NCBI GenBank assembly: GCA_964016885.1
Contig: OZ024752.1
Coordinates: forward strand, 24,924,001-24,988,000
Direction of reading: 5' to 3'
DNA length: 64,000 bases
Origin: Eledone cirrhosa
Taxonomy: Eukaryota
Each line of letters starts with the position of its first letter. The stretch's first letter is position 1. A program made the position numbers and the translations under genes. The notes below the pieces were generated by a model. It saw nothing but the letters and a program-made list of their open reading frames with translations, did no database searches and was not told the origin of the DNA. Below are positions 2,171-53,807 of this stretch, piece after piece.

Positions 2171-2431
2171 AAGTAATTCCATCGGAAAAGTCCAGGAAAA
2201 AAGAGTGCTCTATGTAAGCAACAGAGCTTAATTATTATTATTATGTAATAAACAACATAAGGCAATTATTCCATTTACCAGTGGTTTCTTAAAAGCAAAA
2301 GGTTTTGCTTTCAATCCTCAGAATGAAAAATCCTGGTTTGTTTATTGAATATGGATTCTAAAAACAAAACCCTTAAGAAACCACTGGTAAATGGAATAAT
2401 TGCCTTATGTTGTTTATTACATAATAATAAT
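2168..2431. mobile_element. Small fold-back insertion related to the PLE-1 terminal repeat, in (TA)n
   Basis: Perfect 59-bp inverted arms 2234-2292 and 2373-2431; shares GAAACC.CTGGTAA, TTGTTTATTA and AGAGCACTCT motifs with 5468-5550. Confidence 0.6.
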
Positions 2432-2616: not shown

Positions 2617-5590
2617 TAATGTATAATAAACAATACAATATAATTACCTCATTACCAGAGGTTTCCCGAATAAGACGAATACGAAAAACGTCCTCATTCG
2701 TTCGTCGGACAAGACAATTTAAAACATGAAATATTTGAAAAGTCTCCTCAAGAAATGCAAGAGTTTAACGGGCAAAAAATATATAAATAAAAGTAATGCA
2801 AGAGATATATAAAAAATAAGGAAATATAGTTAGGGTATGTGTATAAGTATGTATATACATTCACAAATGTACATATGTGTGTATGTACAAATGCATGTGT
2901 ATGGTGAGAATGTGTGCGTAAGTACATATATGAGGGCAAGTATATTTGTGTATATGTGACCACAAATACGTATATAATATGAGTTGAAAAAGAAATTGTA
3001 AGATAATATAGTTAACACGCATCCAGATACAGGTATTAAATACACATACGAGTATGAAAGCACGCGTATAAACACACACACACGCGCAGTCACTTATATG
3101 CGGAAGATAAAGAAGGATGGGAGTGTAATAGTAAAAAGAAGTGTCATTCTCGATATATGTATAAAAATGAAACAATATATGAGAATGAAAAACATTTTTT
3201 AAATCAAAGAGAAAGTGATCAATTAACACTAGTGAAAAAACAAACATATGTACGCACATACACACACATATATATATTAAAAAATATTTATACACACAAA
3301 TACGTACAGACAAAAGAGCATGCATGCGTACATACATACACACGAGGCACATATATATATATCGCCACATGTATATCTAATCACACGTACGCGACTATAT
3401 ATATATACATATATACATACACACCCATTCATACATATACATATAGACACATATACATACACATACACATACATTCACCCGCATACACACACACGTATAA
3501 ATAAGTATGTAAAAAACATAGATATAAAAACACACATACACACACATATATATACGTACGCACGCACACATACGGAGGCGTTCGTATGCATATACAGAAC
3601 GTATACACACATATGCACTCTCACACGCATAGATACAGATTATAAACCAGCCGTATGAATGAATGAGTACAAATATAAAATCGGCTGCGAAACAACAGAA
3701 TATATCTAGAGTGGAAAACGCAAGTGACATGTAATATCAGGTAGTGAAAGATAATGGGGAAGTAAAATGTGGAATGTGAAGATATTAGGTAAGTGAATCG
3801 AAAAGTAGGAGGGGGGGGGTTACTGGTGGATGTGAAGTAAAAATAAAAATAAAAATAAAAATAAAATTAAAAATAAAGTTAAAAATGAAAGTAAATCAGA
3901 AAGAGAAGTCTGTAAAGAAGATAATTTAAGGAAAGTGAAGAATAAGAGTTTATGTAGGATAAGTATCTGAAAGTGAGTTAAGTTTATATGAGCTAGAAAG
4001 CAAGTGTGATTTCATGTGTGGGCAACTGGTGAAAATTTCTGTTTTTGTATTTAGGCAGGTTTTTGGTGATTTAAGGTTCTGTAAAATCCAATATTTTTCA
4101 CTTATACAGAGTGTGCATCTTCTTGTTCCTCTTGCATATTCTTTAGATTGGTTCAAAATTGGCCAATCCAATTTATATTGTATACCTTGGTCTTTCAAAT
4201 CCCATATTCTGCTAGCCAGAGCTGTTGTGAATCTTTTTTCTGGATGTCGGAAAGATGCGACATGTGAGTAATAATGCGTTTTTAATTTGTCTTGTGTCAT
4301 ACCCACATATCGTTCGCTGGTGACTGGTTGGTTGTTGCTGATGGTTGTCACTTTAGCCGCATATACAATGGCTTTGGTGTTGCATTTACCTTGTAATGGG
4401 CATTCACTTTTGACTCTACAGGAGCAATTTTGATGTTCTCTGGGTGATTTCTTATTGAGGATATAAGATTTAATAGGGGGACCGCAGGAGTAGCTAATTT
4501 TGACACAGTTTCTATTGAAGATCTTATAGTATCTGTGTGTTCTAGGGAAATGTTTATCTAAGAGCTCTAGGAATTTTTTGCCTACATTAGTTTTAACTGC
4601 TAGAGAGTAGAGGGTGTGAACCAGATTATTTTTCTTTTCCTATTATTATGTTTAAAAGAGTTAGTATTGTTGGGTATGTACTTAATCGGTTCGCTAAATC
4701 CGCTATTTTGAAGGGCTTTATTATAGTAGGAGGATGCCCTATTTAAAATAGCTTCTGAGGAAGAGAGGGTGGAGATCCTACGGCTAATATTAGGGATAAG
4801 GTTTTTAAAAATTATAGGAGGATGGAAAGAGCCTTTATTTATATATGTTAAATTTTCATTAGGTTTATGGTATGGTTTATAAGAAGCAGTAGGCAGATCT
4901 AAGTTTATATCTAGAAAATTAACATTGGAAAGGTTAGTGTAAATAGTAATTTTAAGATTAAAACTAGCGAAGGTTTTTATTAAGTCTTTCCTTAATCTAT
5001 CTAACTTATGGCCTATGGTGGTATGGGAAAGTATTAGACCATCGTCGCGATAAAGCCCAAAAATATGATTAGGGAATTTTTCTTTAAGTGTGTGTAGGTG
5101 GAATAGGCCGACTAAATCACAAACATCAGCACTGTCAAAAGAACCCATTGAGACATCGAATGGGTTCTCTGGGTTAGATATTTTTATTCAAGTGTCATTA
5201 TCAGTAAAAAGTAGAGTGTTACTAGCATGCAAGATGACATTCTCTTCAATATCAGAAATATTGGTAAACTTTCTAGCGAAATTTAAGGCTTTCGCTAAAA
5301 GAGTCTGAGTGATAGACAGGTAGAAATCTACAATGTCAAATTGGGTGAATCTAGAACTATTTTTATTTTTAATATTTCTTGAGGAGACTTTTCAAATATT
5401 TCACTATGTTTTAAATTGCCTTGTCCGACGAACGAATGAGGACGTTTTTCGTATTCGTCTTATTCGGGAAACCTCTGGTAATGAGGTAATTATATTGTAT
5501 TGTTTATTATACATTAAATTTTGCTCTGGTACTTATATAGAGCACTCTTCACTCCTATGACTTTTTCAATTTTCAACGGAAACTTCAATA
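2617..5590 (-). mobile_element. Penelope-like element family 1, 5'-truncated and frameshifted, with inverted terminal repeat
   Basis: RT motifs MGSFDSADVCDLVG and GLYRDDGL (ORF 4600-5148); C-terminal GIY-YIG (IVY...YVGMT, CTLCISEK..I; ORF 3950-4351); 2617-2756 is the inverted copy of 5374-5516; both ends abut (TA)n. Confidence 0.88.
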
Positions 5591-11625: not shown

Positions 11626-13228
<1,603 letters not shown>

Positions 13229-13605: not shown

Positions 13606-13818
13606 CGTTTCTGAATTTGTTTAGCAAGATTCTTTATCTGAAATCGTGTGTTGAAACCGATATTGTTATACTTTGGGAGGGTCATGTTGCCAATAAGAAA
13701 CACACGCACCAGTTGCTTTCACTTCAATTTAATTTATTAAATATTTATAAATTTACAAATTTATAAATTTCTGGTTGGTTGGTTGGTTCCACAACCAGAT
13801 AGTTGTTTATATATATAT

Positions 13819-13863
13819 AGTCATAGTTCTTTCGTCACACACTCTGTGACCTCTTCAGTGACT
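13819..13863 (-). ncRNA. Minimal type I hammerhead ribozyme in the PLE-2 pLTR
   Basis: AGTCA-CTGAAGA-G-GTCACA gagtg TGTGAC-GAAA-GAAC-TA-TGACT; stem I AGTCA/TGACT. Confidence 0.75.
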
Positions 13864-14146
13864 GGGGATTTCTTTCTTCGTTTCTATGCCTTTCCTTTCT
13901 TCTATCCTACGCCATTTTGTTTGTGTGTGGGTTGCGTGCTCAGTTTGCGCATGCGCCACATCCGGGTGTCTGTGTGTGTTTGTGTTCATTTTTCTATTTT
14001 TCTATTTATATTTTTTTATTTGTTTGTTTATTTATTTATTTATTGTTGGTTGGTTGTTTGTTCTATGTGTGTGTGTGTTTTCATTTTGTGTGTGTTTTCA
14101 ATTGTAAGTTGTTTGTTCGATGTGTGTGTGTGTTTTCATTTTGTCC

Positions 14147-15580
14147 TTAATTGTAAGTTGTGATGTTGCTGTTCCACTCATATTTTCTATTTAATTTTGG
14201 TTTTAATTCTTTTATGCTTACTGCCTCTGTAATTTGCCTAAACATTGCGTCTTTCTTGTGTGTGGATTCTATTTTTATTTCTATGCTCTCTAATTTACCC
14301 CTGTGTTCTATCTTAGCATGTTGGTAGAGCACAGATGATTCTTTATTATCTTGGAGGTCTCGCCAGTGTTCATTTATTCGTTCCCCTATACTACGAGCTG
14401 TCTCACCTATGTACACTACATTTTTGTTTCTACATTGTCCTTCAGTACATCTTATGCTATATACTACATTTCTAGTTTTACAGTTAATATGGGGGCTTAT
14501 TTTACAGGTTATACATTTCTTATCTATACATGAGGGTCTTTGGAACGGGTATGTCTTGCTAATAAGTGTTTTTACGGAGGTACCAGGTCTTTCTACTATC
14601 TTAATATTGAGATTATGTTTCTTTAGGGCCCTTCTAAATTTGTAGGCTAGTTCGCCTCTAGGGGTTGTATTGATGAACATTACACTCTGGTATTTATTGC
14701 TATCATACCATGAGTTTATTCTATTGGCCTTGTTCTTAGTTCTTTCTATTCTATTCCAAAATTTGCTCCTATACAAGGGGCAGGTCCCATTTATGTCATT
14801 ATTTACCATTTTTTCCCATTTGGTTCTGGCTCCTTTATACACTCTGATTCTATCTCTCTGATTGTAGCCAGAGAACTGCATACGGTGGATGAAGTGTTGT
14901 ATGTGTCTCTCTAGTTCTTCGGGGTTGCACATGCGGGACACATTTCTCATCACCCGTACCAAATCCGCAATCAGTATGTTGATTTTGGTATGGTCCGAAA
15001 TGGCCGAGTTTCGGTGGATCAGATGTTTGGAAGTCATGGGTTTGGCATAATGGGAATGGAGGATTTGTTTTTGGTTGTTAATAGTATCTAACCAGAGCTC
15101 TGTGTCTAGTACAGGTAATCGATGGTTGGGGTGTCTACTTGGGTAGTCTATAGTAACTCTAATGCTCTGGTGGATGGAGTTTGCTATTTGCTGGATGCTT
15201 TCCATTGTGTTTTTCTCTAGTTCCTGACTGTTCTTTAGTGGGGGTGTCTTAACTACGATGTTTATATCATCTACGTAGCGGGAGTACATTATCAGGGTTA
15301 AGCTGTCTTCTAATTGTTCATTAAGTTTTTGTTTAAGTCTACTGTCCCACCATACCATGAATAAGTTAGCTATGTCGCCTGCAATGCTAACACCAATGGC
15401 TGCTCCCTCCTCTTGGGCATATGTTTTACCATTAAATTTGAACATATGTTCCTTAAGGGTTAGTTTTATGCTGGCCCCTACCGCATGTGCAATCATTTTC
15501 TTCAGTTCATCATGGTTTTCGGGTGTCCGTATGGCTCTGGTCCACCCGTTCCATCTATCTGTGTGGGTTTTCTTGGCCAT
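14147..15580 (-). CDS. PLE reverse transcriptase plus GIY-YIG endonuclease (5'-truncated, open frame)
   Basis: GAAIG..IAGDIANLFM, RYVDD, LPVLD, CxxC-rich linker, NVVYSIRC...YIGET.R..ERI.EH, PKLN; first ~34 aa of the ORF-track call come from the inverted arm. Confidence 0.9.
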   Translation of the reverse strand: MAKKTHTDRWNGWTRAIRTPENHDELKKMIAHAVGASIKLTLKEHMFKFNGKTYAQEEGAAIGVSIAGDIANLFMVWWDSRLKQKLNEQLEDSLTLIMYSRYVDDINIVVKTPPLKNSQELEKNTMESIQQIANSIHQSIRVTIDYPSRHPNHRLPVLDTELWLDTINNQKQILHSHYAKPMTSKHLIHRNSAISDHTKINILIADLVRVMRNVSRMCNPEELERHIQHFIHRMQFSGYNQRDRIRVYKGARTKWEKMVNNDINGTCPLYRSKFWNRIERTKNKANRINSWYDSNKYQSVMFINTTPRGELAYKFRRALKKHNLNIKIVERPGTSVKTLISKTYPFQRPSCIDKKCITCKISPHINCKTRNVVYSIRCTEGQCRNKNVVYIGETARSIGERINEHWRDLQDNKESSVLYQHAKIEHRGKLESIEIKIESTHKKDAMFRQITEAVSIKELKPKLNRKYEWNSNITTYN

Positions 15581-16150
15581 TGAGAAACAAAAATGTAGTG
15601 TACATAGGTGAGACAGCTCGTAGTATAGGGGAACGAATAAATGAACACTGGCGAGACCTCCAAGATAATAAAGAATCATCTGTGCTCTACCAACATGCTA
15701 AGATAGAACACAGGGGTAAATTAGAGAGCATAGAAATAAAAATAGAATCCACACACAAGAAAGACGCAATGTTTAGGCAAATTACAGAGGCAGTAAGCAT
15801 AAAAGAATTAAAACCAAAATTAAATAGAAAATATGAGTGGAACAGCAACATCACAACTTACAATTAAGGACAAAATGAAAACACACACACACATCGAACA
15901 AACAACTTACAATTGAAAACACACACAAAATGAAAACACACACACACATAGAACAAACAACCAACCAACAATAAATAAATAAATAAACAAACAAATAAAA
16001 AAATATAAATAGAAAAATAGAAAAATGAACACAAACACACACAGACACCCGGATGTGACGCATGCGCAAACTGAGCACGCAACCCACACACAAACAAAAT
16101 GGCGTAGGATAGAAGAAAGGAAAGGCATAGAAACGAAGAAAGAAATCCCC

Positions 16151-16195
16151 AGTCACTGAAGAGATCACAGAGTGTGTGACGAAAGAACTATGACT
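16151..16195 (+). ncRNA. Minimal type I hammerhead ribozyme in the inverted PLE-2 pLTR
   Basis: Same motif with one G>A change at the base of stem II. Confidence 0.72.
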
Positions 16196-16370
16196 ATATA
16201 TATATAAACAACTATCTGGTTGTGGAACCAACCAACCAACCAGAAATTTATAAATTTGTAAATTTATAAATATTTAATAAATTAAATTGAAGTGAAAGCA
16301 ACTGGTGCGTGTGTTTCTTATTGGCAACATGACCCTCCCAAAGTATAACAATATATATATATACATATAC

Positions 16371-22010: not shown

Positions 22011-23309
22011 ACTTATTTATTTTTCAGATTTTTTACACCGCCACTCCATTCTTAATTCACCCCACCCTCACTTATTTATTTTTCAGATTTTTTACACTGC
22101 CACCACTCTCTTAATTCACCCCACGCCCTATTTATTAAATTTTATCACATCTCTGCTGAAATATTATTTTAAGTGGTCGCATTCCTGCGACAATTTTCTT
22201 TAGACATTAAAAAACATTATAAATGACATAAAAAGTACATTACTAGAAATGCCAAATGTTATAAAATAAATAGGATGGGTTGGGGCCTCATGTAAACTAA
22301 ATGACTAATTCTGATTTTCTATCTCTGGTGAAATTTATATGTATATAAATATATATACATATGTATATATATATATATAAATATCTATACATATGTATAT
22401 ATATATATATAAATATCTATACATATGTATATATATATGTATATATATGAGCTCTTAAGTCCAGTAAAATAACCTCTAGTACCACAAACAATACACCCAG
22501 TCTTTGCTGTAAAATGGTTGATGAGAGGAAGGGCATCCAAACAGAAAAGAAAAAAATAGTGCTAAAATTATGGAAAGCCCTGCAAATAAAAATGTCCACT
22601 AATTGTGTCTACAGGCCTAATACAAGTCGTGTTATTGGGGTACCTAGGGTAGCCATGTTTGAGAATCCTTTGACTGTTATCAAGCAATTGCACAGCACTT
22701 TTCCCTTCCAGGTAGAAAGAACTGTTACTCAAGGAACTGTCAAGTTACACATCTCGGGTCTCAGACAATTACCATGTTAGAATGTCATATAAGAATGAAG
22801 TTCTTGGGTAAAGAGCTCCCAAGAGTTAGGAGGATATAATTTATAGAGCTTGCTGGAATACCACTACTTATATTGGAGAGAATAACTCTGGACAGGAAAG
22901 TTGATATCTACAGTTTATCAATATAGAAATATAAAATTTCCAATGTTAAATCTATCTCTGTTTCTAAAGTATTCTCCAATATCTCATACGGTTTCTTTCT
23001 TATTCCAGAATATCAGATGACATTGGGATAAAATTATTTTTTAATCTTGAATACACCCCCTCTATTTATCATTTCAAGACTAAAGCTTTTGATATGGAAC
23101 TCATATAACGGTGTTTATAGAAATCTATGGCAGAATTACTGTGAAATATTTCCTCAGAACTGTGTGTCTTGGAAAAGTATTGTTTCATCAGCATCTGAAA
23201 TATTTACAAGATGATTTTGAATCTTAACTAAACTTGGATCAGAAAGAAGTTTGCATCATCTTCAGATCTTGACTGAGGTCACAGTTGCCGGAAATATAGC
23301 AGAAGAAAC

Positions 23310-24656
23310 ATGGAAAATAAATTGAGTGAGAAGAAGATTAAATGTGAAACATTGTCTAAAGATATGGCTATTCCAGAAGAGATGCCAAAGCCTAGAGGAG
23401 AGAAGCCATATCACTGTGATGTCTGTGGTAAATCATTCTCTCAAAGTGGTCAGTTAACTCCACACAAACGTATACATACAGGAGACAAGCCATATCACTG
23501 CGTTATCTGTGGGGAATCATTCTCTATTAGTAGTACCTTAACTAGACACAAACGTATACATACAGGAGAGAAGCCATACCACTGTGATATCTGTGGTAAA
23601 TCATTCTCTCGTAGTGGTAATTTAACTTCTCACAAACGTATACATACAGGTGACAAACGATATCACTGTGATATCTGTAGTAAATCATTCTCTGAAAGTA
23701 GTACCTTAACTAAACACTTATGTACCCATACAGGAGATAAGCCATACCACTGTGATATCTGTGGTAAATCAATCTCTTGTAGTAGTACCTTAACTAGACA
23801 CAAACGTATACATACAGGTGAGATGCCATCCCACTGTGATCTCTGTGGTAAATCATTCTTTACAAATAGTGACTTAACTAGACACAAACATATACATACA
23901 GGTGAGAAGCCATATCACTGTGATATCTGTGGTAAATCTTTCTCTCAAAGTAGTACCTTAACTAAACACTTACGTACCCATACAGGAGACAAGCCATATC
24001 ACTGTGATATCTGTGGTAAATCATTCTCTCAAAGTAGTGCCTTAACTAAACACTTACGTATCCATACAGGAGACAAGCCATATCACTGTGATATCTGTGG
24101 TAAATCATTCATTACAAGTGGTGACTTAACTAGACACAAATGTATACATACAGGAGAGAAGCCATACCACTGTGATATCTGTGGTAAATCATTCTTTACA
24201 AGTAGTAACTTAACTAAACACAAACATATACATACAGGAGATAAGCGATACTGTGATATCTGTGGTAAATCATTCTCTGAAAGTAGTAACTTAACTAAAC
24301 ACTTACGTACTCATACAGGAGACAAGCCATACCACTGTGATATCTGTGGTAAATCATTCTCTGTTAGTAGTACCTTAACTAAACACTTACATACCCATAC
24401 AGAAGACAAGCCATACCACTGTGATATCTGTGGTAAATCATTCTTTACAAGTAGTGACTTAACTAGACACAAACGTATACATACAGGAGATAAGCCATAT
24501 CACTGTGATATCTGTGGTAAATCATTCTTTACAAATAGTGACTTAACTAGACACAAACGCATACATACTGGTGAGAAGCCATATCACTGTAATATGTGTG
24601 GTAAATCTTTCTCTCAAACTGGTCAGTTAACTTTCCACAAACGTAAGCACCGATGA
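23310..24656 (+). CDS. C2H2 zinc-finger protein, 15 tandem fingers, 448 aa, no recognisable effector domain
   Basis: Repeated [10 protein letters not shown]...L..H.R.HTG(E/D)KP; splice acceptor TTCTTATTCCAG at ~23008 upstream of the ATG. Confidence 0.92.
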   Translation: MENKLSEKKIKCETLSKDMAIPEEMPKPRGEKPYHCDVCGKSFSQSGQLTPHKRIHTGDKPYHCVICGESFSISSTLTRHKRIHTGEKPYHCDICGKSFSRSGNLTSHKRIHTGDKRYHCDICSKSFSESSTLTKHLCTHTGDKPYHCDICGKSISCSSTLTRHKRIHTGEMPSHCDLCGKSFFTNSDLTRHKHIHTGEKPYHCDICGKSFSQSSTLTKHLRTHTGDKPYHCDICGKSFSQSSALTKHLRIHTGDKPYHCDICGKSFITSGDLTRHKCIHTGEKPYHCDICGKSFFTSSNLTKHKHIHTGDKRYCDICGKSFSESSNLTKHLRTHTGDKPYHCDICGKSFSVSSTLTKHLHTHTEDKPYHCDICGKSFFTSSDLTRHKRIHTGDKPYHCDICGKSFFTNSDLTRHKRIHTGEKPYHCNMCGKSFSQTGQLTFHKRKHR

Positions 24657-36246: not shown

Positions 36247-37461
36247 TCTACCTGGAGTTGCGACCGAAAGATAGTAATAGCAATTGGAAAGACCAATGGA
36301 AACATTGTTTCCTCAGTCCGATTTGACGAAAGCCAATCGTTGCTTCCTGTGAATGTTTGCTACTTACTGCTCCTGTGCAATGGCCACATGTAAAACCTAT
36401 ATTCTTAGCTAACCTACCTGAGATCCCACTACATCTCTTGTGTACCCATTGTTTGTATTTCTAGCACACTGAGCAAGGCCATTTTTCTGAGGGGATCAGG
36501 GCCCTGTTTTCCCTTCTACTGATACTTGGCTGGCTAACCCAGACATAGTCCTAAATAAATGAAACACTGGCGGAGTCGTAGGGGTATCTAAGTGACATAC
36601 AGTATTTCTTGGGCATATTTTAAAACCTGATGGAGCCCATCACCTCACTCGTCTGAACACAATTGAGATCTGAATAAAACTTCAAGTGAAATCAGATATT
36701 GTATGGATTCATATAGAGTCGTAACTCCTGGTCTAAGCACAGCCGATTTCTCCCAGAGAAAGATAGAAAAGAAGAAAAAGATATAGAGGAACAATTGACT
36801 CCTACTAATAAAAAGATGGAAGTTAAACTGGTTTTGACATGTCACCAGGAGAGGAGATGATTTCTATGTTAGAAATTCCTATCAGAATGAATTTTTCACT
36901 AAACTGCCATAGAGCAGACCTCTCTAGAGATAGAAGGATAACATTTATAGAGCATGCTGGAATACCACTGTTTACATTGGAGATAATTACTCTGAACAGG
37001 AAAGTTGATATCTATAGTTTATCAATATAGAAATATAAAATTTCCTCTGTTAAATCTATCTCTGCTTCTAAAGTATTCTCTATTATCTCATACTGTTTCT
37101 TTCTTATTTCAGAATACCAGATGACATTGGGATAAATTATTATTTTCAATCTTGGATACATCACCTCTATTTATCATCATTTGAAGACTAAAACTTGTTA
37201 AATAGAACTCATATAACACTGTTTATATAAATCTGTCGTGAAATTACTTTGAAATATTTCCTCAACACTGAGTTTATTTTTTTTCACTATCAGATGATTT
37301 TGTATTTTAACTAAACTTGGATGAAAAAGAAGTTTGTATTATCTTCAGATATTAACTGAAATCACAGTTGAGGGAAATATAAAATATATATTTTTTAGGA
37401 ATATAATATAAAAAATATTACAAGAAAAACATTTGTATATTCTGTTGAAGAAAAAATTATA

Positions 37462-38256
37462 ATGGAAAATAAATGCAAAACACAATCGAAAATGTTTAGT
37501 ATTCCTGGTGAGATGCCAAAGGTTGGAGAAGAGAAGCCATATCACTGTGATATCTGTTGTATATCATTCTATGTAAGTAGTACCTTAACTCGCCACAAAC
37601 ATATACATACAGGAGACAAGCCATATCACTGTGATATCTGTGGTAAATCATTCTCTCAAAGTGGTACCTTAACTAGCCACAATCGTACCCATACAGGAGA
37701 CAAGCCATATCACTGTGATATCTGTGGTAAATCATTCTCTGAAAGAGGTAAATTAACTAAACACAAACAAACACATACAGGTGAGAAACTATATCACTGT
37801 GATAAGCCATATCATAGTGATATCTGTGGTAAATCGTTCTTGCAGAAAGGTCAATTAACTTCTCACAAACGTACCCATACAGGTGCGAAGCCATATAACT
37901 GTGATATATGTGGTAAATTATTCTCTCAAAGTGGTAACTTAACTAGCCACAAACATATACATACAGGAGACAAGACATATCACTGTCATATCTGTGGTAA
38001 ATCATTCTCTCAAAGTGGTACCTTAACTAGCCACAAACGTACCCATACAGGAGACAAGCCATATCACTGTGATATCTGTGGTATATCATTCTCTGGGAAA
38101 AGTAGCCTAACTACTCACAAACTTATACATGCAGAGGAGAAATCACAATGCATTGACATCAGTGATAAATCCTCTCAAAATTGTGAATTAATGAGAATAC
38201 AAATACATATCTGTGTAATATCTATGGTAAATCATTCTCTTTCAATGCTACATTAA
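37462..38256 (+). CDS. C2H2 zinc-finger protein paralog, 264 aa (6 intact fingers, 1 broken)
   Basis: Same finger consensus; paralogous upstream acceptor TTCTTATTTCAG at ~37112. Confidence 0.8.
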
Positions 38257-40047: not shown

Positions 40048-41030
40048 ATCAGAGTATATAGAGGAAAAAATGGGAAAAATGGTAAATAATGATACAAATG
40101 GGACCTGCCCCTTGTATAGGAGCAAATTTTGGAATAGAATAGAAAGAACTAGGAATAAGGTTAATAGAATAAACTCATGGTATGATAGCAATAAATACCA
40201 GAGTGTAATGTTCATCAATACAACCCCTACAGATGAATTAGCTTACAAATTTAGAAGGGCCCTAGATAAACATAAACTCAATATTAAGATAGTAGAAGAC
40301 CAGATACTTCCCTAAAAACACTTATTAGCAATACATCCCCTTTTCTAGAAATGTAGTATATAGCATAAGATGTACTGAAGGACAATGTAGAAATAAGAAT
40401 ATAGTGTACATAGGTGAGACAGCTTGTAGTATAGGAGAACGGATAAATGAACACTGGCGAGAGCTTCAAGTTAGAAAAGAATCATCTGTACTCCACCTAC
40501 ATGCTAAAATAGAACATAAGGGTAAATTAGAGAACATAGAAATAAAAATAGAATCTACACACAGAAAAGACACAATGTTTAGACAAATCACAGAGGCAAT
40601 AAACATAAATGAACTCCAACCAAAATTAAATAGAAAACAGGAATGGAATAGCAACATCACAACTTACAATTAAGGACAAAATGAAAACACACACACACAT
40701 AGAACAAACAACCAACCAGTAACATGTAAATAAACAAATAAATAAACAAATATAAACACACACAGACACCGGATGTAACACATGCGCAAACTAAGCACAC
40801 AACACACACAAAAATAAGATGGCGTGGGACAACAAAGGAGAGGCACAAAAACAAAGAAAAGAATCCCCAGTCACTGAAGAGGTCACAGAATGTGTGACGA
40901 AAGAACTTTGACAATATATGAACAACCGTCCGGTTGTGGAACCAACCAACCGGAAATTTATAAATTTAATTTATAATAAATTGGAGTGAAAGCAACTGGT
41001 GCGTGTGTTTCTTATTGGCAACATGACCCT
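40048..41030 (+). mobile_element. PLE-2 copy, 5'-truncated, decayed
   Basis: GTCPLYRSKFWNR and YIGET...PKLN; pLTR with HHR at 40869-40913. Confidence 0.9.
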
Positions 41031-41860
41031 CGGCTTAATTCGGGATGTCTGTTTGTTTACAAACAAACCTAGCATTATAATAAATGTTCGGTAAATCCAT
41101 ACATACATATATATATGTGTGCATGTATGTATATATATACATACTACTGTACGTCTGTATACATATATGTAATAGATAGCTAATAAGCTTGAAACAAGTA
41201 CAGCGTTCCTTTGTCAGTGTTGAACAAAAGGGCAACGATAGTTGTTTCACACTGTACGGCTTAATTCGGGATGTTTGTTTACAAACAAACCGGGCATTAT
41301 AATAAATGTTCGGTAAATCCATACGTACATATATATATGTGTGCATGTATGTATATATATACATACTACTGTACGTCTGTATACATATATGTATGTACGT
41401 ATACATACTTATATTTAAGTAACAGCCATACTAAGAGTGAGAAATGAAATTTCGTTTCATTTTTTCCATTTATCGTTTTTGGTGCGCCCGGCCGATTAAC
41501 TCACTCGATATGCAAATTAGGCTGTTCAGCCGTTAATATGCATAAGGAAAGTATATACTTTCAGACGTTCAATCATCTGGCAGGAAGGTATACGGTGCTG
41601 ACGATAGCTAATAAGCTTGAAACTAGTACATCGTTCCTTTGTCAGTGTTGAACAAAAGGGCAACGATGGTTGCTAAATATTGTACGGCTTAATTCGGGAT
41701 GTTTGTTTGTTTACAAACAAACCGAGCATTATAATAAATGTTCGGTAAATCCATACGTACATATATATATGTGTGCATGTATATATACTACTGTACGCAT
41801 GTGTGCATGTATACATACTACTGTACGTCTGTATACATATATGTATGTACGTATACATAC
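41031..41860 (+). mobile_element. Retrozyme-like tandem array of a ~428-nt non-coding unit
   Basis: CGGCTTAATTCGGGATG recurs at 41031, 41257 and 41685; unit carries an HHR and many hairpins. Confidence 0.78.
41592..41634 (+). ncRNA. Minimal type I hammerhead ribozyme, palindromic stem III
   Basis: ACGGTG-CTGACGA-T-AGCT aata AGCT-T-GAAA-CTAG-TA-CATCGT; predicted cleavage after GUA at 41628. Confidence 0.85.
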
Positions 41861-41887
41861 CTATATATATATATATACATATATATA

Positions 41888-42805
41888 TTGTTATACTTTG
41901 GGAGGGTCATGTTGCCAATAAGAAACACACGCACCAGTTGCTTTCACTTCAATTTATTATAATAAATTTATACATTTAGGAATTTATAAATTTCTGGTTG
42001 GTTGGTTGGTTCCACAACCAGATAGTTGTTTATATATATTGTCAAAGTTCTTTCGTCACACATTCTGTGACCTCTTCAGTGACTGGGGATTCTTTTCTTT
42101 GTTGTTGTGCCTCTCCTTTGTTCTGTCCTATGCCATTTTGTTTCTGTGTGTGTGTTGTGTGCTCAGTCTGCGCATGCACCACATCCCGGTGTCTGTGTGT
42201 GTTTATATTTGTTTATTTATTTGTTTATTTACATGTTACCGGTTGGTTGTTTGTTCTATGTGTGTGTGTGTTTTCATTTTGTCCTGAATTGTAAGTTGTG
42301 ATGTTGCTGTTCCACTAATATTTTTTATTTAATTTTGGTTGTAATTCTTTTATGTTTAATGCCTCTGTGATTTGTCTAAACATTGCGTCTTTTCTGTGTG
42401 TAGATTCTATTTTTATTTCTATGTTCTCTAATTTACCCGTATGTTCTATTTTAGAATGTTGGTAGAGTACAGATGATTCTTTACTATCTTGAAGGTCTCG
42501 CCAGTGTTCATTTATCCGTTCCCCTACACTACGAGCTGTCTCACCTATGTACACTATATTTTTGTCTCTACATTTCCCTTCAGTACATCTTATGCTATAC
42601 ACTACATTTCTAGTTTTAAAGTCTCTACATTTCCCTTCAGTACATCTTATGCTATACACTACATTTCTAGTTTTACAGAATCCCCATGGGAGCTTATTTT
42701 ACAGGTTATACATTTCTTATCTATACAGGGGGGGTCTTTGGAAAGGGTATGTCTTGCTAATAAGTGTTTTTACGGAGGTACCTGGTCTTTCTACTATCTT
42801 AATAT
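41888..42805 (-). mobile_element. PLE-2 copy, 5'-truncated
   Basis: GIY-YIG ORF 42315-42659; pLTR with HHR at 42040-42084. Confidence 0.9.
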
Positions 42806-43360
42806 ACATATGTCGGTAGATATACTAATTCTTTATAATTATCTCCAAATTATTTGTTGAGCAAAATTTGCCGAAATTACTACTGTGATTAATAGTAGTG
42901 GCTAGGCTCTGTCTTAATAGCACCCCCACTCCTGGCTGATTAACCTCAGTGTCACGTGATTGATTCTTTTGAATTTGCCACTTGACCAAGTAGGCAGTGA
43001 ATTTTTCAATGTCTTGGAATCTAGCCCCGCTCGCTTTTTTCCATCCACTGAATTATTTTTATATAAGTTCCCAGTGTCCCCGCATTGCCTGGAAGCTTAG
43101 CTGAGAATAGACTCCCTGATGACGTAAAGCTTCTTTATGGATACACTCCGTAACCATATTTATCCCCTTACAGAAACTAATTAGTTGGAGTGAAATTTTA
43201 GTAAGTAAGTCAATTTTCATAACTTTCTTATTTACGTCTTTCATATAATTGTTCTGCATCCCCTTGCATAGAACCACAAAGTTACTAAGACAAAACATAT
43301 ATTTGCTAGCATAGGTATGCATCTGTATACATATGTCGGTAGATATACTAATTCTTTATA
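42803..43360 (+). mobile_element. Retrozyme-like element: 523-nt unit plus 35-bp terminal direct repeat
   Basis: TATACATATGTCGGTAGATATACTAATTCTTTATA at 42803-42837 and 43326-43360; no credible ORF; central HHR. Confidence 0.78.
43111..43191 (+). ncRNA. Type I hammerhead ribozyme, palindromic stem III
   Basis: ACTCC-CTGATGA-C-GTAA...GGATA...TATCC..TTAC-A-GAAAC-TAATTA-GTT-GGAGT; predicted cleavage after GUU at 43186. Confidence 0.8.
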
Positions 43361-43849
43361 TATCTATATATATATAAAGTATATATATATATGAAGTATA
43401 TATATATATATAAAGTATATATATATATATATATAAAGTATATATATATATAAATTATGTATATATATGTATAAAGTATATATATATATATAAAGTATAT
43501 ATATATATATTGCAAATGTTCTGCTCACAATTATTGCTGTATTTCTCATTTCGCTAGCTTCCACAACACATTTATTTTTTTACCCTCATTTTCTCTACCA
43601 TGTTGCCTCTCTATCTGTCTATTTTTCCATCAGATGCTACAGGCCATGACTTGGCTATTATTATTGTTGCTGTATTCAATTCTATCGGTTATTTTGCCAT
43701 GACGGCGACACTCTCTCTATCTCTCTCTCTATGAGGGCTATACCCTCTCTCTCTCCCTCTCTCTCTATGAGGGCTATACCCTCTCTCTCTCCCTCTCTCT
43801 ATCTATCTCTAGCCACATATTACCTCCCTTTCGCTCTCAGCCATTCCTT

Positions 43850-47875: not shown

Positions 47876-47923
47876 TGAGACTATATACATACATAAAATA
47901 TATATATAGTTTATATATATATA

Positions 47924-48995
47924 TTGTTATACTTTGGGAGGGTCATGTTGCCAATAAGAAACACACGCACCAGTTGCTTTCACTTCAATTTATTATATAT
48001 TTATAAATTTATAAATTTCTGGTTCGTTGGTTGGTTCCACAACCAGATAGTTGTTTATATATAGTCATAGTTCTTTCGTCACACATTCTGTGACCTCTTC
48101 AGTGACTGGGGATTCTTTTCTTTGTTGTTGTGCCTCTCCTTTGTTCTGTCCTACGCCATTTTGTTTCTGTGTGTGTGTTGTGTGCTCAGTCTGCGCATGC
48201 GCCACATCCGGGTGTCTGTGTGTGTTTATGTTTATTTATTTATTTGTTTATTTACATGTTACTGGTTGGTTGTTTGTTCTATGTGTGTGTGTGTTTTCAT
48301 TTTGTCCTTAATTGTAAGTTGTGATGTTGCTGTTCCACTCATACTTTCTATTTAATTTTGGTTGTAATTCTTTTATGTTTATTGCCTCTGTAATTTGTCT
48401 AAACATTGCGTCTTTTCTGTGTGTAGATTCTATTTTTATTTCTATGTTCTCTAATTTACCCTTGCGTTCTATCTTAGCATGTTGGTAGAGTACAGATGAT
48501 TCTTTATTATCTTGAAGGTCTCGCCAGTGTTCATTTATCCGTTCCCCTACACTACGAGCTGTCTCACCTATGTACACTATATTTTTGTCTCTACATTGTC
48601 CTTCAGTACATCTTATGCTATACACTACATTTCTAGTTTAACAGTTAATATGGGGGCTTATTTTACAGGTTATACATTTCTTATCTATACATGAGGGTCT
48701 TTGAAAAGGGTATGTCTTGCTAATAAGTGTTTTTACGGAGGTACCTGGTCTTTCTACTATCTTAATATTGAGTTTATGTTTATTTAAGGCCCTTCTAAGT
48801 TTGTAAGCTAATTCACCTCTAGGGGTTGTATTGATGAACATTACACTCTGGTATTTATTGCTATCATACCATGAGTTTATTCTATTAGCCTTGTTCCTAG
48901 TTCTTTCTATTCTATTCCAAAATTTGCTCCTATACAAGGGGCAGGTCCCATTTATGTCATTATTTACCATTTTTTCCCATTTGGTTCTGGCTCCT
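47924..48995 (-). mobile_element. PLE-2 copy, 5'-truncated, in (TA)n
   Basis: ORFs 48638-49207 (part) and 48308-48625; pLTR HHR at 48063-48107. Confidence 0.9.
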
Positions 48996-49326
48996 ATATA
49001 TATATACTTTATATATAAATACAATATATGAATGGACACACACATGTATATATAGAGATGTGTATATATAGATGTATTCATGTATATATACATACGTACA
49101 TTATACATAATTGACAAGATATTACCCCTCCACATCTGATATATACACTCATAATATAAGAATACGGATAGGCTATGTAGCCGGTAAAACCAAAAGGTGT
49201 GCAACACACATATTGATATAGTGTTTCACCAGCTCTTCCTCAATCATACATAGATGTGAGTGTGTATAATAAGTGAGTGTATATAATAATTATTTTGTAT
49301 AATGTGTTTATTTATAAATATGTATG

Positions 49327-53224: not shown

Positions 53225-53807
53225 AAATACAATATGTTGAAAAGGTAACACACTAGAGAGAGATAGTGTGCCATCAATAAAACAGGGAAAAACCACCAGT
53301 GTATGGAATCTATAACCTATGAAAGGAAGGGTAGACACACGATAATTAAAAATATGAATTAAAATGTATATACACACCTCTATAATTATATAACACACAC
53401 GTACAAATCCAAAGAGATCTGTTTCGCCAATAAGTTGTTGACAGAAATGAAATAGCCTATGGGTCATCAGCATGTGCAAGACTATACATTTCAGACAACT
53501 CTAAAAGAATTTAAGGTGACCGTCCAGCTACACGTTAGAGAGAGATCTCACAGCATGTTTAGGGCAGTGAAACAGTGGCTTCTGAGGGATGAGCTGCTAG
53601 AAAGGGCAGCCCAAACCACTCAGAGAAGTGTGCTCAACCAAACAGAGAGAGAGGAAAGACTGTTATAAGGAGCGAAATATCACGATAAATTAACGGAGCC
53701 ATAGACTCTCGCTATTCCCTGTCAATAATGTGCTCGAAGGAGAAGGAATCCTGAGCTCTTTAAAATACAATATGTTTTAAAAGGTAACACACTAGAGAGA
53801 GATAGTG
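53223..53807 (-). mobile_element. Retrozyme-like element: 538-nt unit plus ~46-bp terminal direct repeat, in (TA)n
   Basis: TAAAATACAATATGTT..AAAAGGTAACACACTAGAGAGAGATAGTG at 53223-53268 and 53761-53807; HHR on - strand. Confidence 0.8.
53395..53477 (-). ncRNA. Type I hammerhead ribozyme with full-length stem III
   Basis: GCACATG-CTGATGA-CCCATAGG...CTTATTGGC-GAAAC-AGATCT cttt GGATTT-GTA-CGTGTGT; 7-bp stem I and 8-bp stem III using G-U pairs. Confidence 0.85.

Follow-up and report, generated by a model that had tools for sequence, protein, structure and literature searches.

A hammerhead retrozyme copy with Penelope-type insertion anatomy and a predicted distal lock

The locus and its retrozyme family

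The window, a stretch of 64,000 nucleotides that was analyzed as a whole, contains a non-coding, hammerhead-bearing element bounded on one side by an arm of a Penelope-like element and on the other by a (TA)n tract (Table 1). The longest ATG open reading frame of the unit encodes 87 amino acids on the minus strand, indicating that the unit is non-coding, and GC content is 35% over the 2 kb around the copy. No tRNA gene was found. When 42838..43360 was folded as a circle, a z score of approximately −3.6 was obtained against 60 shuffles.

Table 1. Coordinates of features at the retrozyme locus (window positions)
Feature	Position	Strand	Basis
5'-truncated Neptune-type Penelope-like arm with GIY-YIG coding piece; hammerhead at ~42083	41885..42805	-	
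Truncated last 35 nt of preceding unit (apparent terminal repeat)	42803..42837	+	sequence comparison
Whole 523-nt unit without long ORF, ~98% identical to nearest copies	42838..43360	+	
Covarying helix beside lock, 5' arm (partner 43281-43291)	42911..42921	+	
Predicted distal lock (partners 43178-43185 and 43187-43192)	42927..42942	+	
Type I hammerhead	43111..43191	+	fold and covariation
Inner CACTCC, mostly variable loop of upper hairpin; small young subfamily	43144..43149	+	
Fixed end A, unit position 445, internal in window copy	43238..43247	+	
Covarying helix beside lock, 3' arm	43281..43291	+	
Fixed end B, in loop of short hairpin	43349..43360	+	
Degenerate (TA)n target tract	43361..43510	.	

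A 22-mer from the 3' part of the hammerhead had 9,169 exact matches genome-wide (3.0 Gb), while the reversed control had none; together with the covarying stems described below, these counts place the hammerhead beyond chance. The closest copies (best 40 of 2,300 candidates) were 95 to 100% identical across most of the query. Units are ∼520 to 580 nt long, and subfamilies reach down to 73 to 75% identity. The features of a retrozyme are present (type I core with three stems, a short tandem multicopy unit, no coding content, low GC), as are those of a Penelope-like element that is not autonomous (a partial tandem, an inverted 5' arm, a tail on one side, and a microsatellite as target). No Rfam hammerhead model matched the element at the gathering score or at an E value of ≤5, and no description of the family was listed in the largely open-access literature searched.

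The initial annotation had counted the element as a third independent retrozyme family. Its distinctness from the others in the window stands, as the unit had no similarity to the remainder of the 64 kb at an E value of <1; the count does not, since one of the other hammerhead families there belongs to an autonomous Penelope-like element as its pLTR and is no retrozyme. Judged from sequence, the retrozyme family is real and new, its insertions are of Penelope type, and its ribozyme activity is predicted; the element itself is very probably a 5'-truncated, one-armed copy of this abundant, non-coding, animal-type hammerhead retrozyme of Penelope type.

The copy at the window locus has a single hammerhead, and numerous sister loci have at least two; according to a preprint (10.64898/2026.07.22.740005), an active copy requires at least two consecutive hammerheads. 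One sister array, extending from L031:8200-10000 to L032:1820, carries ∼3.5 units of a 550-nt subfamily end to end, and its TA tract also contains a two-armed insertion of the subfamily to which the window retrozyme belongs. Outside the hammerhead, the best conserved block of the unit is 42946-42990 (column identity, 0.93 to 0.96), which is a candidate enzyme-binding or promoter site.

Other hammerheads occur nearby. Another retrozyme-like family (window 41050-41880; unit, ∼430 nt) lies between two Penelope arms, with a hammerhead at 41592, an ACTAGT palindrome, and a T.T mismatch, and has copies in several fetched loci. An isolated hammerhead-like motif, whose stem III is long and whose stem II has a C.C mismatch at its base, lies at 53394-53478 (minus strand), and at least 10 other type I hammerhead families, mostly with a palindromic stem III, were seen in the flanks of fetched loci. 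LINE remnants are numerous across the window, and inspection by eye recognized two frames encoding C2H2 zinc-finger arrays, as well as the remnant of a Tc1-type transposase (23277-24656, 37399-38256, and 11966-12760). The zinc-finger arrays and LINE remnants indicate an animal genome, conceivably that of a cephalopod.

Insertion anatomy and the adjoining Neptune-type element

Copies of the family stop before (TA)n at one of two fixed points, B (43360) or A (43247), which are 113 nt apart. Across 87 loci, each of the 47 traceable two-armed insertions had one A end and one B end (A+A, 0; B+B, 0), and the same arrangement was found in 33/33 two-armed insertions at loci chosen solely by the hammerhead motif. 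Eighty-nine loci, overlapping the 87-locus set at a few loci, were chosen by end B; at 64 of them an inverted arm ended at position 445 (A), at 7 the inverted arm ended elsewhere or was incompletely traced, and the rest led into TA (10 loci) or other DNA (8 loci).

The B arms at these 89 loci were 32 to 1354 nt long, with scattered 5' breakpoints. Because arm lengths at the same 3' end vary to this extent, the 35-nt length of the repeat is best viewed as an accident of 5' truncation, and the pattern of one arm per fixed end with truncation indicates that the true unit is 42838-43360 and that the preceding 35 nt are a truncated earlier unit. Thus, the perfect 35-bp terminal repeat reported initially is an exact repeat (42803-42837 and 43326-43360; spacing, 523), but it is a truncated partial tandem and is not terminal. 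Readings of the repeat as a target duplication or an LTR were rejected, as arm length is variable and no duplication of the flanks is present. A template starting at the cleavage site was rejected as well: 5' breakpoints did not clearly accumulate there (383-387 contained 4 of 89, in a region where breakpoints are dense overall). Insertions of Penelope-like elements are described in PMC8557442 as partially tandem, inverted, tailed, and microsatellite targeted; the partial tandem, inverted, tailed, (TA)n pattern found here matches that description, and we therefore assign the family a Penelope-type anatomy.

Eleven of the 89 B arms exceeded 697 nt and consequently span two cleavage sites. The 3' arm of the end B hairpin is the start of the following unit, beyond the inserted end; this hairpin was 95.2% paired, and one of its pairs showed a two-sided change in 9 of 25 units. 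Arms that extend over two cleavage sites and an end hairpin closed by the next unit argue for a template longer than one cut unit, as does the sister array of ∼3.5 units, and the template is, on this sequence evidence, a circle or a multimer. At L003 and L026, two informative sites set the units near the ends apart from those near the junction, a pattern that suits a one-unit circle less well than a multimeric template or arm-to-arm conversion; L038 has two more split sites, within an A/T run, and the complex locus L111 has one.

These register-specific variants, together with the low predicted competence for cleavage (see below), would suit a route with no circle, in which copies are made from uncut linear multimeric transcripts of tandem sources and the hammerhead trims rarely or is inactive. 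However, arm-to-arm conversion explains the L003 and L026 sites equally well, the unit folds closed with helices across the unit boundary, and stem II shows compensatory changes, which implies that the fold of the ribozyme is under selection. We consider it unlikely that circles are dispensed with.

The left-flank arm includes a GIY-YIG piece that scored above the cut-off of Pfam PF01541, and it has 99 to 100% matches elsewhere up to 42805. It is called Neptune-type by motif, from a C-X4-C-X2-C linker that fits the description. The Neptune-type element has many intact young copies, including one at L166 with an intact 1279-amino-acid ORF starting inside its pLTR, and it likewise stops at two fixed points (58 nt apart), with the arms of three two-armed insertions each ending at a different one. 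A young two-armed insertion with one long and one short end and a 516-amino-acid reverse transcriptase (RT)/endonuclease frame is located at window 13630-16354, and further Neptune-type pieces are located at 40048-41031 and 47921-49000. A remnant of a second Penelope clade, which we take to be Hydra-like from its motifs, is present at 3950-5187 (minus strand), with a separate hammerhead nearby at 2269-2328 (minus strand).

At the window locus, the Neptune-type arm meets the retrozyme B arm head to head at the short end of the former, with three letters (42803-42805) common to both. This join conforms to the A+B rule and could represent a single hybrid event; it is also explained by a deletion between neighbors. 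The Neptune-type element accounts for 6,993 of the 453,060 bases around retrozyme loci, and its end motifs number 22,691, an abundance that makes chance adjacency plausible. At L219, a second join between the two elements retains 14 nt of the retrozyme along with the two long ends and for these reasons looks like a deletion. Other B arms are joined head to head with an arm of another hammerhead family (L002:930-1101) or, in the same direction, with a different Penelope RT piece (L025:700-1341). No pLTR homologue of the retrozyme unit was found in the two Penelope families of the window or in the fetched loci, and a search for shorter-stem relatives returned 16 matches that resemble deletion derivatives. 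The adjoining element is a weak and rather doubtful candidate for the source of the helper enzyme.

Hammerhead folds, the inner CACTCC, and the distal pairing

The hammerhead described initially, with stem I ACTCC/GGAGT and a palindromic stem III, was found as described and is of type I. Stem I is formed by ACTCC (43111-43115) and GGAGT (43187-43191), the core by CTGATGA (43116-43122) and GAAA (43173-43176), and stem III by the palindrome ACTAATTAGT (43176-43185), with the cut predicted after U43186 (GUU triplet). Stem II (43124-43129/43166-43171) carries an upper hairpin (43136-43144/43150-43158) and, at its base, a C43123.A43172 mismatch shared by almost every family member. Both a GUU triplet and a C.A mismatch are expected to slow cleavage, and eight of nine Xenopus dimers tested in 10.64898/2026.07.22.740005 did not cleave. 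GAGAA (43104-43108), beside stem I, is complementary to TTCTC (43131-43135 in the stem II internal loop of typical copies); both sides are nearly invariant, and a pseudoknot contact is possible. In an alignment of the window copy with 67 of 68 motif-picked hammerheads (one partial row was dropped; 49 were distinct), 93.5% of the cells were paired in the active fold, with 95 two-sided changes, a count inflated by the relatedness of the copies. Sliding controls reached only 30 to 44%.

The initial annotation had also proposed a built-in switch, in which an inner CACTCC captures GGAGTG while CGTAAAG and CTTTATG form a hairpin. The letters are there (CACTCC, 43144-43149; CGTAAAG, 43123-43129; CTTTATG, 43133-43139), and the pairing is possible in the window copy, with a probability of ∼0.06 locally and 0.001 in the whole unit. 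As a family trait, the switch did not hold up. The alternative hairpin depends on A43128 and T43135, which are private to the window copy among 62 rows from the closest loci (some of them duplicates from overlapping loci), and at both positions every contig of run X1 has the other letter. Genome-wide, the CGTAAAG/CTTTATG context is found a single time, its longer-spacer version does not occur, and the inner CACTCC in its exact context has 49 matches versus 9,169 hammerhead motifs, the site being mostly the variable loop of a covarying hairpin. The annotation had named conservation of both folds among copies as the check; this was run on the 49 distinct hammerheads, and the switch fold had 63.7% of cells paired and no two-sided changes, with 360 of 500 shuffles as high; the difference from the active fold is large despite the relatedness of the copies. 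CGCTCC variants do retain six pairs of the switch via wobble, and in one of seven cleaved units (L017) CGCTCC was the preferred partner of GGAG (0.64). Nevertheless, with a hairpin context unique in the genome and no two-sided changes, it is very improbable that the inner pairing is a selected inactive fold.

The broader idea of a conformational lock persists at another site. Whole-unit folding predicted that 42927-42942 pairs with 43178-43192 over the cut site, leaving U43186 at a bulge. In the window copy, the duplex was calculated at −17.1 kcal/mol, versus −10.2 ± 1.7 kcal/mol in 200 shuffles. Among 17 representatives, no more than 2 of 200 shuffles were as strong in nine and 5 to 14 were as strong in four, while the best duplex lay elsewhere in the other four. 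A duplex of −10.7 kcal/mol or better was present in 52 of 54 motif-picked rows (the other two were junction artifacts), a threshold so close to the shuffle mean that its weak end is uninformative. The lock ranked first to third by energy among ∼90 windows in five of seven units and 13th and 14th in two sister-subfamily units, where it is weaker; its motif is retained across subfamilies that are 73 to 75% alike. In units chosen for the lock motif, the pairing probability was at least 0.8 in 13 of 16 circles, and three were unlocked.

RNAalifold analysis of 25 units, hand chosen from 52 to span subfamilies, paired the CACUCC/GGAGUG core in 25/25 at all six positions, with C-to-U changes only. 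Over the 14-pair helix, 94.3% of cells were paired; six changes were one-sided, none was two-sided, and one pair was disrupted in 12 of the 25 units. The partner strand is the hammerhead arm, which is nearly invariant, in part through the choice of search anchors. The covarying helix beside the lock (42911-42921/43281-43291) can form locally around end B and is no proof of the long-range pairing.

Stem I had a pairing probability of 0.88 when the pairing span was limited to 100 nt and of 0.002 when it was unlimited, which fits cutting during transcription with locking later, span being a proxy and not kinetics. In most units, the equilibrium fold has the uncut precursor blocked by the lock as well (it was released in 2 of 16), so that cleavage must be kinetic or dimeric. 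A scheme in which the cut 5' end pre-occupies the lock and frees the next hammerhead held at equilibrium in only 2 of 16 units and was rejected. As a splint, the lock kept both ends of the cut unit together in three of seven cut units.

The hammerhead may instead need no dedicated lock. The single ribozyme would be inactive, owing to a weak 3-bp stem III and mispairing of core CUGAU with palindrome AUUAG, and cutting only as a dimer would spare the monomeric circle; the upstream complement would then be a relic duplicate of the hammerhead 5' half. Local folding is consistent with this: the mispairing dominates (probability, 0.47 in the window copy; median, 0.76 over 124 copies), the single active fold has a median probability of 0.008 in the same 124 copies, and RNAalifold also returns the mispaired fold. 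A double hammerhead was favored over two singles by 6.4 to 8.5 kcal/mol in 5/5 tandems, although it still lay 4.4 to 7.4 kcal/mol above the free ensemble. Dimer-only cleavage has precedents in newt, axolotl, and Penelope hammerheads. Moreover, the lock resembles ACTCC-CTGAT, its column conservation is not unusual (0.875 versus an average of 0.873), and, of its 10 types of substitution, 4 disrupt a pair. Against a relic stand the six-pair core, paired in every unit with C-to-U changes only, and the whole-unit fold of the window copy, which places the lock at 0.99 and the local core mispairing at 0.002. Dimer-only cutting could protect circles without a lock, and the two are compatible; protection with no lock at all is possible but is the less favored reading. 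On the modeled folds, our preference is slightly for 42927-42942, ∼250 bases upstream of the cut site, acting as a functional lock against re-cleavage.

Proposed mechanism and comparison with known systems

Overall, the locus is probably best explained as a Penelope-pasted retrozyme copy with a predicted distal lock. Tandem copies would be transcribed, and the hammerhead would cut either while folding is local or as a double hammerhead via the palindrome. A host ligase may then close the cut unit into a circle, possibly with 42927-42942 keeping the two ends together, after which pairing of this strand would block stems I and III. An enzyme, likely a borrowed Penelope-type reverse transcriptase, would nick (TA)n DNA and paste the retrozyme into it, using the UA-rich, single-stranded sites A and B in a circular or multimeric RNA template to prime both target ends. 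A larger, viroid-like version of this scheme can be drawn, in which a single 16-nt strand serves first as the splint that brings the cut ends together for ligation and later as the seal of the circle, the circle is copied by a Neptune-type Penelope enzyme from two fixed single-stranded sites at once, and the locus is a hybrid with one target end primed on helper RNA and the other on retrozyme RNA; taken as a whole, we regard this version as rather improbable.

The family was compared with three known systems. The family resembles metazoan non-LTR retrozymes (PMC7229834; 10.64898/2026.07.22.740005) in its non-coding, AT-rich unit, type I hammerhead whose stem III is short and palindromic, basal mismatch in stem II (which axolotl HHR_Amex2 also has), copy number in the thousands, and coexistence with Penelope-like elements. 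Its unit of 520 to 580 nt compares with the 150 to 450 nt given as typical in PMC7229834 and falls within the 51 to 972 nt of 10.64898/2026.07.22.740005. It differs in occurring as dispersed two-armed insertions and not in long arrays, in its 50-nt branched stem II, and in having no detected pLTR homology. It also has a predicted self-pairing lock, unlike most animal retrozyme circles, which according to PMC7229834 are predicted with the hammerhead free (some mussel circles excepted) and must be protected in some other way, which that paper leaves open. Beyond the mussel remark, no animal retrozyme lock was listed in the largely open-access literature searched. A family-wide lock over the cut site would give a testable answer to the question of how animal circles are protected; if the lock fails that test, this is an ordinary new retrozyme family.

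Endonuclease-positive (EN+) Penelope-like elements of the Neptune and Hydra clades, as described in PMC8557442, share with the family 5' truncation, partial tandems, an inverted 5' copy, a tail at one end, (TA)n targeting, and a hammerhead in the repeat. The family differs from them in lacking RT or GIY-YIG coding capacity and in its tail of 113 nt (versus 30 to 40 nt), and its sequence is not similar to that of either Penelope family in the window. The strict A+B rule, common to the retrozyme and an intact Penelope-like element, bears on how inverted, tailed insertions form, a question left open in PMC8557442.

Plant LTR retrozymes and hammerhead viroids, as described in PMC4918200, are similar in that the hammerhead in the circle is predicted to be paired with a complement that blocks its fold. 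Compared with plant LTR retrozymes, the family has a type I and not a type III hammerhead, a 14-pair lock in place of a long hairpin, and, instead of LTRs and a 4-bp target duplication, a variable truncated repeat and (TA)n flanks.
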